From the IMG/VR virus record IMGVR_UViG_2541047807_000006: a DNA stretch of 9,150 bases, one strand, 5' to 3'. Of this stretch, positions 1,659-5,596 are shown piece by piece; positions within the stretch are counted from its first letter, which is position 1; every line of letters starts with the position of its first letter. The stretch comes from a virus. Lineage: Duplodnaviria > Heunggongvirae > Uroviricota > Caudoviricetes. The translations under genes and the position numbers were made by a program. A model generated the notes under the pieces. The model ran no database searches. It was not told the origin of the DNA and worked only from the letters and a program-made list of their open reading frames with translations.

Positions 1659-1868
1659 ATGCGTGAAATAAATGAAGATCGCGTAATCCGTGAGGATGAA
1701 TGTCGTAAGTTAACTGGAGTGTGTCGCACTACACGCTATGAACTGGAGAAAAAAGGGAATTTCCCGTCACGCCGTAATCTGGGCGGTCGTTCTGTAGGTT
1801 GGCTGCTGTCCGAGGTTATGGAATGGGTTAAAAGCCGGGATCGCATTAATTCAGGCAAGGCAGCGTAA
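1659..1868 (+). CDS. alpA: AlpA-family phage transcriptional regulator / excisionase-like protein, 69 aa
   Basis: Sequence LTGVCRTTRYELEKKGNFPSRRNLGGRSVGWLLSEVMEWV matches the AlpA/Vis-type winged-HTH pattern (HTH followed by GxRxVGW...EV.EW). Its size and position directly after int are typical of P4-like and Gram-negative PICI elements. Confidence 0.85.
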   Translation: MREINEDRVIREDECRKLTGVCRTTRYELEKKGNFPSRRNLGGRSVGWLLSEVMEWVKSRDRINSGKAA

Positions 1869-1982: not shown

Positions 1983-2171
1983 TCAGTCAGATTTGGTTCG
2001 TTCCAAGGTTTGCAACGAGAGCTTTTTCCTGTGCTCTTTAAGGAATTTCTCAAGAGCAAAAGCACATGGCGCGAATCTTTCTGATTCATGCTCTATCTTT
2101 CTGCGCCGTCTTTTCCGTGCCGGTGATAATGTTTTGGTCAATTCTTTATCGGTCATTGTGTTGTCCTGCAT
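1983..2171 (-). CDS. Hypothetical small basic protein (62 aa), possibly co-transcribed downstream of the RHH gene
   Basis: ORF on the same strand, 42 bp downstream of the RHH gene stop. Very basic (KRRRRK) with no recognisable motif. No clear Shine-Dalgarno at the first ATG; a weak AGGA precedes the internal ATG (MTDKE...). Could be spurious. Confidence 0.25.
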   Translation of the reverse strand: MQDNTMTDKELTKTLSPARKRRRRKIEHESERFAPCAFALEKFLKEHRKKLSLQTLERTKSD

Positions 2172-2213: not shown

Positions 2214-2393
2214 TTACTCCTGCTCTTTGGCCTTGCGACGCTGGCGGCGTTTGATCTCGCCTTTTGCGGCAGTAACTAAAAAACCAGCGGTACTTTCGCC
2301 AGGTTCTTTAAGTTGCTCAATATCATCCATTACTTCATGTGGGATTCTGACAGTTGTCATTTGTGATTTTGCGTTCTTTGCACCAGTTGCCAT
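2214..2393 (-). CDS. Ribbon-helix-helix (CopG/Arc-like) DNA-binding protein, about 59 aa
   Basis: Start trimmed to the internal ATG at 2393, which is preceded by AGGAGA with 7-nt spacing. The protein MATGAKNAKSQMTTVRIPHEVMDDIEQL... has an N-terminal beta-strand (TVRIP) followed by two helices, as in RHH folds. The N-terminal 56 codons of the track ORF run through an AT-rich region and look non-coding. An alternative start is the ATG at 2360 (48 aa). Confidence 0.55.
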   Translation of the reverse strand: MATGAKNAKSQMTTVRIPHEVMDDIEQLKEPGESTAGFLVTAAKGEIKRRQRRKAKEQE

Positions 2394-2459
2394 TTCTGGA
2401 TCTCCTAAAAATTGGTGTATGTCAGTATACGCAAAAAAAATGATAAAAAAAGGCTTGAA

Positions 2460-2505
2460 GTGTATTTCACCAGTGAGTAAATTAAAAAGCAAAGGTGAAA
2501 TACAC
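2460..2505. promoter_or_regulatory. Perfect 12-bp inverted repeat GTGTATTTCACC-N22-GGTGAAATACAC in the divergent promoter region; candidate operator
   Basis: Seen directly. It lies in the AT-rich gap between the minus-strand RHH gene and the plus-strand small-gene operon. The operator role is inferred. Confidence 0.45.
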
Positions 2506-2586
2506 CTGAAAGAGCAACGCCCCGCAGTGCTCGCAACACATGCAGGGCGTCTAACCACCAACGATAGAAAGCGTATCGAGGTAGCT

Positions 2587-2790
2587 ATGTTAAATCATAC
2601 CACACACCCGCAAGGGCGGGACTCGCACAACCTGAATAAATACATCTGGCGTTTTATCGCCCTGAGCACGGCACAACCGCGCGTAATCCACATCGAGGCC
2701 ACCAGCGAACAGAAAGCCCGTCAGCAATCCCCGGCTGGCTACGTGATGGTATTCGCCGCCCGTATTCGTCAGGGGGTGTGCCATGCCTGA
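2587..2790 (+). CDS. Small hypothetical protein, 67 aa (possibly Icd-like; tentative)
   Basis: Internal ATG at 2587 preceded by GAGG with 5-nt spacing. Only the last 67 codons of the 303-codon frame look protein-like (YIWRFIALSTAQPRVIHIEATSEQKARQQSPAGYVMVFAARIRQG). The stop overlaps the next start (ATGCCTGA). Resemblance to Icd-like small proteins of P4-like prophages is from memory and unverified. Confidence 0.5.
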   Translation: MLNHTTHPQGRDSHNLNKYIWRFIALSTAQPRVIHIEATSEQKARQQSPAGYVMVFAARIRQGVCHA

Positions 2791-3103
2791 TATGTCAAAT
2801 TACCAGTACCTGATTAATCCGCATTTTAACTGTGAGCATGATATTGCTAAAAAGGTTTATTCCGCTGCTGATGGGGCTACTGACAATATATCAATGGCTG
2901 TTGCGTCAATTGGTAGCCTGATGTGGCATGCGTCAGAAAATGAGGACTATGACGAAAAGGCCATGCGCATTGATATGGGTAATATCGGTTTGTTACTGGC
3001 AATGCTTGGGCAGTTTGATATTTCGTTACGGTGCACCATTGAAAATGCCACAGATGCATTAAATGCCATAAAGAAAGCGAATACTGATTCAAATCGGGGA
3101 TAA
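2783..3103 (+). CDS. Hypothetical protein, 106 aa
   Basis: ORF with a GGGGG Shine-Dalgarno upstream, overlapping the stop of the preceding ORF by 8 nt. No recognisable motif. Confidence 0.55.
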   Translation: MPDMSNYQYLINPHFNCEHDIAKKVYSAADGATDNISMAVASIGSLMWHASENEDYDEKAMRIDMGNIGLLLAMLGQFDISLRCTIENATDALNAIKKANTDSNRG

Positions 3104-3109
3104 ATAATC

Positions 3110-3409
3110 ATGAGAACATATTTATCTGGCTTGACTGCCAGCGGTTATGCACACCCCAAAATTATCCCCGGCGCTATTTATCTGGATAAGAACGGTAACA
3201 GAGTAACGGTAAAAGAACTGATGTTTGACCGTGTGTATTTTATTCGTGATGGCTATTCATTTCATAGTTCGCTGAACGTGGAGATCTTTATTAGCAGATT
3301 CCGGCGGGAAATCCCGACTTCCAGAAATAACCATGTGTCACGTGTGGATGTGGATAAAAAACTGCAGGAACTGAAAAACATGATTGCCGCGTGGAGAGAG
3401 CCGAAATGA
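3110..3409 (+). CDS. Hypothetical protein, 99 aa
   Basis: ORF with GGGGA upstream. Its stop TGA (3407-3409) overlaps the ATG (3406-3408) of the primase gene in an ATGA arrangement, indicating translational coupling. No recognisable motif. Confidence 0.55.
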   Translation: MRTYLSGLTASGYAHPKIIPGAIYLDKNGNRVTVKELMFDRVYFIRDGYSFHSSLNVEIFISRFRREIPTSRNNHVSRVDVDKKLQELKNMIAAWREPK

Positions 3410-5223
3410 AAAAAGCGCCAAATTTAAAACACCAGCCGCGTGACAAAATGACGGAAGTCATCATTTTTGCGGGTAGTGATGCGTGGGCACATGCGAAGCA
3501 GTGGCAGGAACAGGACGGGCGACTGGCTGGCGATAACGTGCCACCTGTCTGGCTTGGAGAGCAACAACTTGCCGAACTGGACAACCTGCAAATCGTACCG
3601 GACGGACGCTATCGCGTGCGTCTCTACCAGGCGGGGTTATTGCGTCCGGGGCTTGTTAATACCATCGGGCAGAAACTGGCAGCGGCAGGTGTCAGGGATG
3701 CTGATTATTACCCTGAAGGAATGCACAGCCAGAAACGGGAGAACTGGCGCGAATATCTGGAACGTGAACGGGCAGAGCTGGCGGAAAAGAAAAAGGTAGT
3801 TGAACTGCCTGTAAAGAAAAAAGAGCGGGTAAAAGACGATAACGCTTCATCACTGGCGCTTAACCAGATGGGAGCAAGTCAACGCGGCGAAGTTCTCCTG
3901 GCACATTATGGCGGTGAACTGGCGATTCATGCTGACTCTGACACTGTTCACCATTACAACGGCGTTGTATGGGAGCCGGTTCAGGATAAAGAGTTACAGC
4001 GTGCTATGGCGCAGATTTTCATTGATGCGGAGATCAGCTATTCGCAGAACGCCATTAAATCGGCGGTCGATACCATGAAGTTAAGTTTGCCTGTAATGGG
4101 GAATACAGCCCGTAACCTGATTGGATTCAGTAACGGGGTATTTGATACCAGAACAGGTAATTTTCGGGAGCATAACAAAAACGACTGGTTGTTAATTGCC
4201 AGTGAATTACCTTTCAGCCCACCAGCAGAGGGGGAAACGCTGGCAACACATGCGCCGAATTTCTGGAAGTGGTTACGCCGTTCGGTGGCTGAGAATGACC
4301 GCAAGGCGGATCGCGTACTGGCTGCCTTATTCATGGTGCTGGCGAACCGGTACGACTGGCAGTTATTCATTGAGGTAACAGGTCCAGGGGGAAGTGGTAA
4401 AAGCGTGATGGCGGAGATTTGCACCATGCTGGCGGGTAAGGCCAACACAGTATCGGCAAGCATGAAGGCGCTGGAAGATGCAAGGGAACGCGCGTTAGTG
4501 GTTGGCTTTTCGCTGATTATCATGCCGGATATGACCCGCTACGCTGGTGATGGGGCAGGGATTAAGGCCATTACAGGCGGTGACAAGGTGGCAATTGACC
4601 CGAAACACAAAGCCCCCTACTCAACGCGTATTCCGGCAGTAGTGCTGGCGGTTAACAATAACGCCATGTCATTCAGTGACCGCAGCGGGGGGATCTCACG
4701 TCGTCGGGTGATATTCAATTTTTCGGAAGTTGTACCGGAGAACGAACGTGATCCAATGCTGGCGGAAAAAATAGAAGGTGAGCTGGCGGTAGTGATTCGC
4801 CATCTGCTTACACGGTTTGCTGACCAGGACGAAGCCAGACGCCTGTTATATGAGCAGCAGAAATCTGAAGAAGCACTGGCGATAAAGCGAGAGGGGGATT
4901 CGCTGGTGGACTTCTGCGGCTATCTCATGGCGTCGGTAATGTGTGATGGCCTGTTAGTGGGTAATGCTGAAATTGTGCCATTCAGCCCACGCAGGTATCT
5001 CTATCATGCCTATCTGGCTTATATGAGGGCACATGGGTTTGGTAAACCTGTAACACTGACGCGCTTCGGTAAAGATATGCCGGGGGCAATGGCGGAATAT
5101 GGCAGGGAGTATATGAAACGGAAAACGAAGCACGGTTTGCGTTCAAACGTGACACTGACGGAGGAATCAGAAGACTGGATGCCATCATGTGTATCGGTCA
5201 CTAATGACGATAGCAAAAATTAA
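3406..5223 (+). CDS. P4 alpha-like replication primase/helicase (D5_N-like region plus SF3-type P-loop NTPase), about 605 aa
   Basis: Walker A GPGGSGKS and a Walker B-like LIIMPDM are seen directly, and the NGVFDTRTGNFREH region resembles D5 N-terminal-type domains. The track start at 3391 is a GTG; the ATG at 3406 has GGAGAG upstream and overlaps the preceding stop, so is preferred. The gene is immediately followed by TGTTCACC iterons. Confidence 0.88.
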   Translation: MKKAPNLKHQPRDKMTEVIIFAGSDAWAHAKQWQEQDGRLAGDNVPPVWLGEQQLAELDNLQIVPDGRYRVRLYQAGLLRPGLVNTIGQKLAAAGVRDADYYPEGMHSQKRENWREYLERERAELAEKKKVVELPVKKKERVKDDNASSLALNQMGASQRGEVLLAHYGGELAIHADSDTVHHYNGVVWEPVQDKELQRAMAQIFIDAEISYSQNAIKSAVDTMKLSLPVMGNTARNLIGFSNGVFDTRTGNFREHNKNDWLLIASELPFSPPAEGETLATHAPNFWKWLRRSVAENDRKADRVLAALFMVLANRYDWQLFIEVTGPGGSGKSVMAEICTMLAGKANTVSASMKALEDARERALVVGFSLIIMPDMTRYAGDGAGIKAITGGDKVAIDPKHKAPYSTRIPAVVLAVNNNAMSFSDRSGGISRRRVIFNFSEVVPENERDPMLAEKIEGELAVVIRHLLTRFADQDEARRLLYEQQKSEEALAIKREGDSLVDFCGYLMASVMCDGLLVGNAEIVPFSPRRYLYHAYLAYMRAHGFGKPVTLTRFGKDMPGAMAEYGREYMKRKTKHGLRSNVTLTEESEDWMPSCVSVTNDDSKN

Positions 5224-5236
5224 ACTTATGGAATAA

Positions 5237-5459
5237 CTGTTCACCACTGTTCACCCTGTCATAAATATCTTTTATATCAGTATATTATAGGGTGAACAGT
5301 TATTTATGAACTGTTCACCAAACTATTCACTGTTCACCTTTTTGGTTGTTTATTGAGCTTCAAGGGTGAACAGTGGTGAACAGTTGGTGAATAGTTTTTG
5401 TGAAACTGTTCACCCCTTAACATTATGAATTAAAAGAGAAAATATCAAAAGGTGAACAG
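5237..5459. repeat. Iteron array of about 10 copies of CTGTTCACC / GGTGAACAG in both orientations; candidate P4-type replication origin (ori/crr-like)
   Basis: Seen directly: tandem copies at 5237-5245 and 5247-5255; inverted pair GGTGAACAGTTA-TTTAT-GAACTGTTCACC (5291-5319); further copies at 5330-5338, 5365-5373, 5375-5383, 5406-5414 and 5451-5459, with a degenerate GGTGAATAG at 5386-5394. The octamer TGTTCACC is, from established knowledge, the type I iteron bound by P4 alpha protein. Confidence 0.75.
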
Positions 5460-5596
5460 GTGAAGGGTTAAAACGCAAAAATTTTAATTTACTGCTGTGA
5501 GATAAAGCCTATGACAGCGAAGCACACCAAAACAACAGGCGGGGAATGATGATCCGTACGGGGATAACATACCGTTTTAAGCAACGAGTAACAGAA

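Follow-up and report, generated by a model that had tools for sequence, protein, structure and literature searches.

Organization of the locus

The stretch of DNA analysed here (the window) comprises 9,150 nucleotides (nt) of IMG/VR virus record IMGVR_UViG_2541047807_000006, assigned to the Caudoviricetes, and is a phage satellite of E. coli of the phage-inducible chromosomal island (PICI) type. Our subject is a set of three small open reading frames (ORFs), here called ORF1, ORF2 and ORF3, that precede the primase gene of this element (Table 1). The gene order of the window is tyrosine integrase, AlpA, the small-ORF chain, a replicase with D5_N, DUF5906 and Pox_D5 domains, an iteron field, a ClpP-protease/major-capsid fusion, and a DUF1441 protein, and the window resembles the capsid-forming PICIs (cfPICIs) around EcCIEDL933 (bioRxiv 10.1101/2022.09.08.507074). 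RefSeq names the members of the chain, in order, 'host cell division inhibitor Icd-like protein', 'hypothetical protein', 'DUF4222 domain-containing protein' and 'DNA primase family protein'.

The genes of the chain are closely joined. ORF1 and ORF2 share an 8-nt overlap (ATGCCTGA), with the sequence GGGGG located 6 nt 5′ of the ORF2 ATG, and ORF3 runs into the primase gene by an ATGA overlap that places the primase start codon at position 3406, 9 nt downstream of a GGAG. Between ORF2 and ORF3 there is no overlap, and the TAA stop codon is followed by 6 nt (ATAATC) and then ATG, with GGGGA upstream. A G-rich Shine-Dalgarno-like run is found 6 to 9 nt 5′ of every start codon. An original prediction for this locus described three translationally coupled ORFs of 67, 106 and 99 amino acids (aa) between alpA and the primase gene, presumably in one operon. 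The coordinates and lengths given there are correct, and the ORFs do form a tightly packed, same-strand chain leading into the primase gene. Coupling through overlaps holds for the ORF1/ORF2 and ORF3/primase junctions but not for ORF2/ORF3, where the 6-nt separation means that coupling would need re-initiation. The position relative to alpA and the primase gene is likewise right, but the description omitted the two minus-strand ORFs that lie between alpA and ORF1.

Table 1. Coordinates of the small-ORF chain and associated features in the window
Feature	Position	Strand	Description
ORF1	2587-2790	+	67 aa; basic, isoelectric point (pI) 10.4; Icd-like/P4 Kil-like; first translated gene of the operon
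ORF2	2783-3103	+	106 aa; acidic, pI 4.6; predicted long helical hairpin; uncharacterised satellite-restricted family
ORF3	3110-3409	+	99 aa; basic, pI 10.0; DUF4222/RgdR family
Primase-helicase-type replicase	3406-5223	+	End of the coupled chain; Pfam D5_N, DUF5906, Pox_D5; phrog_864 'DNA primase' (E = 4e-192)
alpA	1659-1868		
ORF between alpA and ORF1	1983-2171	-	
YlcI/YnfO-family gene	2214-2393	-	59 aa; divergent from ORF1; NF041551, 61.8 bits (cut-off 30)
Divergent control region	2414-2510		Three palindromic sites around a weak promoter-like pair
Palindromic sites	2414-2424, 2455-2471, 2494-2510		GTG-N5-CAC type
Promoter-like pair	2455-2460, 2478-2483		TTGAAG and TAAATT; inferred by reading the sequence
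Structured 5′ leader	2517-2586	+	Two hairpins
Leader hairpin 1	2517-2550	+	
Leader hairpin 2	2557-2582	+	Encloses the ORF1 Shine-Dalgarno sequence GAGG (2578-2581)
Iteron field	5226-5461		AT-rich

All three frames, whose conservation had been raised in the original prediction as a point on which it might fail, stay unbroken in six further E. coli elements that show synonymous variation. The ratio of non-synonymous to synonymous substitution rates (dN/dS) for ORF2 is approximately 0-0.26 in the more divergent pairs and 0.39-0.52 in pairs with very few changes. For example, ORF2 of the window differs from that of one related locus (L001) by six synonymous and no non-synonymous changes, and the corresponding counts between this locus and another (L019) are eight and one. 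The values are approximately 0.23-0.4 for ORF3 and approximately 0.4-0.6 for ORF1. The three ORFs are real genes under purifying selection. In the set of 5426 complete E. coli genomes, 474 carry the ORF2 allele and 472 that of ORF3, the ORF2 family is found in 8.7%, and DNA matching the ORF1 region is found in 1472.

A modular chain in related satellites

We compared the chain gene by gene in eight elements, namely the window, E. coli Sakai Sp7, and the related loci L003, L004, L005, L009, L010 and L013. An Icd-like gene opens the chain in all eight, and its product is basic in seven (pI 8.8-10.6). A DUF4222 gene closes the chain in six (pI 8.7-10.8) and lies directly 5′ of the replicase gene in five, where the junction is ATGA. 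The middle of the chain holds one to five small ORFs. Most of their products are acidic (pI 4-5.6) and seem to be helical, but some are basic. These ORFs are drawn from several recurring families in combinations that differ by element, and the view of this position as a variable slot for small genes is borne out in these related satellites. Of 41 junctions, 34 are overlaps (16 of 4 nt, 14 of 8 nt, three of 11 nt and one of 1 nt) and five are gaps of 4-6 nt. An overlap of the ORF1-type gene with the next gene also recurs among the eight elements, and the junction 5′ of the DUF4222 gene is always a gap, either small or of 30-34 nt. The same layout occurs with three unrelated types of replicase (D5-type, AAA_25 RepA and Toprim/DUF927), and it is found in the prototype cfPICI locus of O157 Sakai. 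The window thus carries the shortest version of a widespread modular chain.

Two features of the sequence bear on how such chains might be assembled. G+C content is approximately 40-42% in ORF2 and ORF3 (2850-3300) versus 50-57% in the primase gene, and the low values fit with exchangeable cassettes. In addition, unrelated chain proteins often end in '..EV-x-H-A' (in L003, L004, L013, L020 and the window, for example at 2770-2790), since the conserved 8-nt junction GAGGTnnnnCATGnnTGA encodes this tail as well as containing the ribosome site and the start codon of the next gene. As judged from its sequence, this junction might be a joint at which recombination shuffles cassettes. In related satellites, genes that are probably cargo for defence or toxicity lie outside the small-ORF chain, including a HEPN-domain protein 3′ of the primase gene in L001 (12215-12928) and an RnlA-type toxin in a Gilliamella locus (L029, 150-1244).

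ORF1 is a relative of P1 Icd and P4 Kil

ORF1 matches the NCBIfam model for Icd-like proteins, NF033153, over model positions 1-48 with 69.1 bits (cut-off 25, E = 2.4e-19), and it matches phrog_6196 with E = 4e-42. The Kil region of satellite P4, which is the C-terminal part of the old 'cI ORF137', matches the same NCBIfam model (E = 7.8e-21), and the 65-aa P4 Kil protein aligns with ORF1 from the first residue to the last. A profile built from ORF1 homologues and compared with P1 Icd by hhalign gives a probability of 95.5% (E = 1.5e-8), with approximately 31% identity over 45 residues. The protein ECs1577 of Sakai Sp7 also matches NF033153. The NF033153 match and the homology to P4 Kil and P1 Icd place ORF1 in the Icd-like family and, at the level of sequence, make it a relative of these two cell-division killers and the counterpart of both. 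The resemblance to Icd, offered as tentative in the original prediction, is therefore strong.

What is recorded for these relatives gives some indication of what ORF1 might do. Over-production of P4 Kil kills cells, and translation of kil/eta prevents premature termination, according to the summary of Forti 1999 that is given in PMC10111431. The annotation of icd in the P1 record reads 'inhibitor of cell division; apparently required for expression of ant', and there is a 4-nt overlap between icd and ant1. The PHROG label 'transcriptional repressor' on ORF1 was set aside; the P4 cI entry bears the same label, which probably descends from the old P4 cI annotation.

The start of ORF1 required a choice. 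RefSeq begins one homologue at the GTG corresponding to position 2527; we prefer the ATG at 2587, since the Shine-Dalgarno sequence and this ATG are invariant across the elements aligned and the bases upstream form a conserved leader. The ORF1 frame is in fact open from 1798 to 2790 (330 codons), starting inside the end of alpA and running antisense to both minus-strand ORFs with the wobble positions aligned. A matching long frame of 248-462 codons occurs in 12 of 15 loci and is closed at 102 codons in the other three. No domain match was found in the long frame upstream of the Icd part. A P4 Eta-like protein was considered for this frame and judged unlikely, given its closure in three loci, the lack of a domain, and the lower dN/dS of the minus-strand YlcI frame (0.15-0.34 versus 0.33-0.62 for the antisense frame on the same bases). 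The sequence comparison indicates that the long frame is probably a shadow ORF of the minus-strand genes.

ORF2 represents a satellite-restricted family

ORF2 matches phrog_15327 over its full length (E = 1.4e-71), a family that has no function label in PHROG. It has no match in Pfam, NCBIfam, PADLOC or the PDB, and none of 80 family members has a significant match in Pfam. With phmmer, an exhaustive search through 1.84 billion representative proteins returned 16 matches, and a profile search gathered 135 protein clusters, mostly of approximately 100-106 aa, from Klebsiella, Escherichia, Raoultella, Erwinia, Kluyvera and Phytobacter. A genome scan added homologues in Serratia, Pantoea, Rahnella and Gilliamella. 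There was no tblastn match to ORF2 among 50,697 phage records, from which ORF1 and ORF3 are also essentially absent. As far as these searches reach, the ORF2 family is confined to satellite-type elements of Enterobacterales and Orbales.

The genomic context of the family is consistent. In Escherichia, Klebsiella, metagenomic and Gilliamella elements, the ORF2-family gene belongs to the chain of small ORFs that precedes a satellite replicase, and in Gilliamella it lies between an AlpA/AntA region and a P4-alpha-like primase. In Serratia and Pantoea loci, the comparison covered the pairing with an Icd-like gene, which is seen there as well, and no large replicase ORF is present within the Rahnella locus. 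In Rahnella (L021/L022) and Gilliamella (L026/L029), the ORF2-family gene lies 5′ of the Icd-like gene, an order opposite to that in the window. The Icd-like and ORF2 families thus remain near neighbours across bacterial orders.

The family is acidic (median pI 4.62), and its near-invariant core includes M47, G69, G39, G44 and Y56. The conserved residues occupy mainly small or hydrophobic positions that are predicted to pack two helices against each other. An AlphaFold2 model built from 80 sequences (predicted local distance difference test score 83.7) has helices at residues 19-52 and 58-105. Structure searches with this model returned only generic hairpin matches, among them WXG100/ESAT-6-like proteins and other two-helix hairpins (HP0062, EsxA/EsxB and prefoldin arms), to which ORF2 shows 6-10% identity with Foldseek E > 0.5 and without the WXG motif. 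A long helical hairpin is a generic shape that is uninformative on function. From these properties we conclude that ORF2 is a putative protein-binding or oligomerising hairpin.

Three other assignments of ORF2 were not adopted. A membrane hairpin is unsupported, as the protein is acidic and its top 19-residue hydropathy is 1.46, below the usual 1.6. Matches to long TPR_12-type proteins reflect one hairpin-length motif summed over 12-13 repeats, and the likeness to these repeats was treated as convergent. The name 'ubiquinol-cytochrome C reductase', carried by many family entries from Klebsiella, Raoultella and Erwinia, has no support in NCBIfam, Pfam or the PDB and is probably a propagated mislabel.

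ORF3 is a member of the DUF4222/RgdR family

ORF3 matches Pfam family PF13973 (DUF4222) over residues 16-67 with 61.1 bits (cut-off 27, E = 7.2e-17). The literature links DUF4222 to RgdR (ECs1581), which is encoded on O-island 51 (OI-51) of E. coli O157:H7 (PMC10877973). RgdR, a basic protein of 99 aa, acts as an activator of LEE1 and type III secretion and as a repressor of motility, and it binds DNA non-specifically (PMC3378721). The Sakai ORF that we took as RgdR has a computed mass of 11,703 Da and a pI of 10.09, which equal the published values (PMC3378721), and ORF3 aligns with it over 99 of 99 residues without gaps at 31% identity (E = 1e-13). In Sakai, ECs1581 is the last small gene before the Sp7 primase gene, which it overlaps by 4 nt, and the chain to which it belongs opens with an Icd-like gene. 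Because the RGD tripeptide that is important for RgdR activity is missing, ORF3 is not a strict RgdR orthologue. Rather, the alignment identifies it as an RgdR-family paralogue in the canonical position, and not as a novel protein.

Profile searches with all three families found no relatives of solved structure. The original prediction recognised no motif beyond the one in ORF1, which fails for ORF3 given its Pfam domain and its full-length, previously studied homologue. The further suggestion that an undescribed function lies in this region can be kept for ORF2, itself a known hypothetical family, but not for ORF1 or ORF3.

Control region and structured leader

The region upstream of ORF1 contains several features that suggest regulation. 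The 59-aa YlcI/YnfO-type protein looks like a ribbon-helix-helix protein when its sequence is read, and in most related loci its gene and the Icd-like gene point away from each other. A search of the literature on YlcI/YnfO function found nothing informative. The arrangement of the sequence suggests that this protein is likely the repressor of the ORF1 operon. Related elements again carry three palindromes, which are alike within an element and have a different core sequence between elements. By their pattern, the palindromes of the window look like candidate operators of an element-specific repressor.

The two-hairpin leader is conserved in 14 elements from four genera, including Escherichia, Serratia and Pantoea elements, Sakai Sp7 and metagenomic sequences. 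With the proposed structure laid over the alignment, 95% of cells pair, compared with 28-53% for slid partners. Compensatory changes on both sides are seen at seven base pairs, and none of 500 shuffles reaches the observed values. The minimum free energy of the leader is -24.1 kcal/mol (z = -2.0). There is no match to any Rfam family; the sole sub-threshold resemblance is to an R1162-like plasmid antisense RNA (18 bits, E = 0.9) and includes a shared CUAACCACCAA stretch.

Control of ORF1 by C4/CI or isrK antisense RNA, as in P1 and P4, was considered and rejected because these RNAs were not found in the window. Both isrK and C4 RNAs were observed upstream of the Icd-like gene in P4 (L015, 8420-8692) and in a helper-embedded Klebsiella satellite (L010, 4431-4623), and both of these elements are without a YlcI-type gene. 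Within this small sample, the YlcI-type gene and the isrK and C4 RNAs never occur in the same element. The pattern is incomplete, as Sakai Sp7 has neither. From this distribution, repressor plus leader on one side and antisense RNA on the other look like alternative front ends, or immunity modules, of the same operon. We found no earlier description of the covarying leader, the cassette-like junctions or the alternative front ends.

Two features are located further away. Just 3′ of the primase stop codon, the iteron field holds at least 11 copies of the 10-nt sequence GGTGAACAGT / ACTGTTCACC in both orientations, at 35-38% G+C. By analogy with the known layout of PICIs (PMC6092414), this field is likely the replication origin served by the operon. 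On the minus strand, a G+C-rich hairpin followed by a T-run is found at 1896-1915, just downstream of the 1983-2171 ORF. From its sequence, it is a plausible terminator of the YlcI-type transcript that would shield alpA from read-through.

A candidate early replication operon and its alternatives

We favour, with a probability of roughly 0.55, a reading in which ORF1, ORF2 and ORF3 are the promoter-proximal genes of an early replication operon of the satellite, which in PICIs would correspond to P4's left operon and to the c4-icd-ant operon of P1. It builds on gene order, junctions, family membership, conservation, leader covariation and synteny, and it proposes repression, gating and a biochemical role for each of the three proteins. 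In the integrated state, the YlcI/YnfO-type protein would silence the operon at the three element-specific palindromes, and leader hairpin 2 would bury the ribosome-binding site of ORF1. Induction of E. coli PICIs depends on a helper phage and on AlpA, which activates PICI genes, and uncontrolled induction harms growth (PMC6092414). Upon induction, ribosomes would load on ORF1 and pass to ORF2 through the 8-nt overlap, to ORF3 by re-initiation over the 6 nt, and to the primase gene at the ATGA, so that translation of ORF1 would gate primase synthesis. By analogy with its Kil/Icd relatives, ORF1 would arrest host division or growth. ORF3, by analogy with RgdR, might be a small, basic, DNA-binding cofactor that is made together with the replicase and acts in transcription or DNA architecture of the element and incidentally affects host genes. 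ORF2 would be one allele of the variable acidic helical slot, and most likely would bind a helper, host or satellite protein rather than act as a catalyst.

Several observations weigh against this reading, which draws on sequence-level data for this element. The promoter-like pair matches eight of 12 positions and was missed by a promoter scan. Covariation in the leader comes from approximately 13 related sequences, and the hairpins could act as DNA. The 6-nt gap permits independent initiation at ORF3. By sequence comparison, the match to P4 is one of position for all but ORF1, with hhalign giving no homology between ORF2 and P4 epsilon or orf151, or between ORF3 and P4 Cnr (probabilities of 0.05-0.3% over these tests). 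Cnr is, we take it, the P4 protein ORF106, which is annotated as DUF5375. ORF3 has PGA at residues 20-22 where RgdR has RGD. Finally, no C4 or isrK RNA was detected in the window at E ≤ 10, including a permissive scan of 2380-2800, in a search whose positive controls scored 75 bits (P4) and 51-61 bits (L010). This absence makes the regulatory analogy with P1 and P4 only partial; antisense-RNA control is a trait of P1 and P4 regulation, not of the Icd-like protein family.

A more far-reaching alternative, which we consider possible but appreciably less probable, is that the stretch from the Icd-like gene to the DUF4222 gene is an unrecognised satellite cassette array. Small, mostly acidic helical proteins would be swapped at conserved junctions composed of a Shine-Dalgarno sequence, ATG and stop codon, and each would bind and disable one helper or host protein, for instance for helper takeover, anti-defence or phage sensing. 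ORF2 would then be the founding member of a new family of such effectors, and the leader a new translational riboregulator that replaces the C4/CI RNA. The ORF2 family is satellite-restricted, strongly conserved and outside the domain libraries, and may reasonably be put forward as a candidate new small effector.

Two further explanations are, in our estimate, both unlikely. The first is an abortive-infection or superinfection-exclusion module, in which an incoming phage protein triggers the Icd-like protein and linked genes and the cell arrests or dies before the phage cycle is complete. This is the behaviour of the prophage-type locus of ECOR61 (Silas et al., bioRxiv 10.1101/2023.04.06.535777), where the effect is lost without the Icd-like gene, and the toxicity of P4 Kil agrees with it. 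However, the ECOR61 Icd-like protein carries a long N-terminal extension that ORF1, if it starts at the ATG at 2587, is without, and cell death there could simply reflect a helper-like signal inducing the satellite, a case that the early-operon reading covers. The original prediction also mentioned an anti-phage role, and we found no evidence linking any of the three ORFs to it. PADLOC-DB gave no match for ORF1 or ORF2, and for ORF3 only Cmr7 at a non-significant E = 0.02 (13 bits).

The second is that ORF2 and ORF3 are plain replication accessories for origin binding, primase loading or copy number, like P4 Cnr, without a role directed at host or helper. ORF3-type genes adjoin the replicase gene, with translational coupling between the two, the alleles of ORF2 and ORF3 show near-perfect co-occurrence in E. 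coli genomes (474 versus 472), RgdR binds DNA non-specifically (PMC3378721), and an iteron origin would lie 3′ of the primase gene. A specific replicase partner is argued against by the three unrelated replicase families that DUF4222 genes precede, and ORF2-family genes occur without DUF4222 in L005, L009 and Gilliamella. Moreover, ORF3 is unrelated to P4 Cnr, locus L013 has a DUF5375 protein besides its DUF4222 protein, and RgdR affects host transcription (PMC3378721).

Still less probable is a toxin-antidote pair in which the acidic ORF2 neutralises the basic ORF1 and the 8-nt overlap sets their ratio. The opposite charges (pI 10.4 and 4.6) and the overlap itself would suit such a pair, as would the closeness of Icd-like and ORF2-family genes even where their order is swapped (Rahnella, Gilliamella) and the acidic helical protein in the slot after the Icd-like gene in L003 and L004. 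However, many Icd-like genes have no ORF2-family gene after them, the product of the gene after the Icd-like gene is basic in Sakai Sp7 (pI 8.2) and L013 (pI 9.6), P4 Kil and P1 Icd are without such a partner, and no toxin-antitoxin or PADLOC model matches.

We give equally little credence to host-benefit cargo, in which small RgdR-like regulators, unrelated to the satellite cycle, would be kept because they retune virulence, motility or surface genes of the host: although RgdR has the effects on LEE1, type III secretion and motility described above, deletion of OI-51 lowers colonisation (PMC3378721; PMC10877973), and RgdR is listed as an accessory gene in all E. coli PICIs analysed (Fillol-Salom et al., PMC6092414), cargo normally lies outside the replication operon and uncoupled from it, DUF4222 homologues occur in strains and genera without the enterocyte effacement locus (LEE), ORF3 is without RGD at 31% identity to RgdR, and a gene shared by all elements of a class gives the impression of a core function.

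The early-operon reading matters because E. coli satellites, both PICIs and capsid-forming PICIs, are common and transfer genes for virulence and defence, and earlier attention has been given to int, alpA, the primase gene and packaging. Every related element examined has small genes at the head of its replication operon, and these genes are novel as a subject in the satellite cycle. A Kil/Icd relative in ORF1, an RgdR relative in ORF3, and a putative repressor with operators and a leader that hides the Shine-Dalgarno sequence suggest how satellite replication might be gated and the host arrested. The effects of RgdR on virulence genes of enterohaemorrhagic E. coli may be a by-product of a core satellite function. 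The trio itself is real but ordinary in kind.

Comparison with known systems

The closest overall parallel is the P4 left operon (vis, kil/eta, epsilon, orf151, cnr, alpha). Both loci have an AlpA/Vis-type gene, a Kil/Icd gene of approximately 65 aa that is translated first, small ORFs, and a primase gene, and in both a long open frame enters the Kil/Icd gene from just after the alpA-type gene, as for P4 eta. P4 carries isrK and C4 (CI) RNAs, whereas the window has a YlcI/YnfO-type gene in divergent orientation and a structured leader of another kind. The P1 immI operon (c4 RNA, icd, ant1/ant2) likewise encodes a small Icd first, which overlaps the next gene by ATGA, and translation of icd is needed for that gene according to the annotation of the P1 record. 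In P1 the downstream gene encodes an antirepressor, whereas in the window ORF2, ORF3 and the primase gene follow, and the window is without C4 RNA or its target sites.

The Icd-like protein, linked small genes and DNA primase acting together in the ECOR61 programmed-cell-death locus (Silas et al., bioRxiv 10.1101/2023.04.06.535777) recall the composition of the chain. This likeness is drawn from the published description, and the N-terminal extension of the ECOR61 protein is missing in ORF1 if translation starts at the ATG at 2587. The RgdR locus (OI-51, also CP-933C or Sakai Sp7, with the prototype EcCIEDL933) shares with the window a basic, 99-aa DUF4222 protein encoded by the last small gene, which runs by ATGA into the primase gene. 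The Sakai Sp7 chain differs in having three other middle ORFs and no ORF2-family gene. Only ORF2 is without a studied relative. As a whole, the trio is a common and already annotated module with the architecture of the P4 left operon and the EcCIEDL933/OI-51 locus, rather than a new system.

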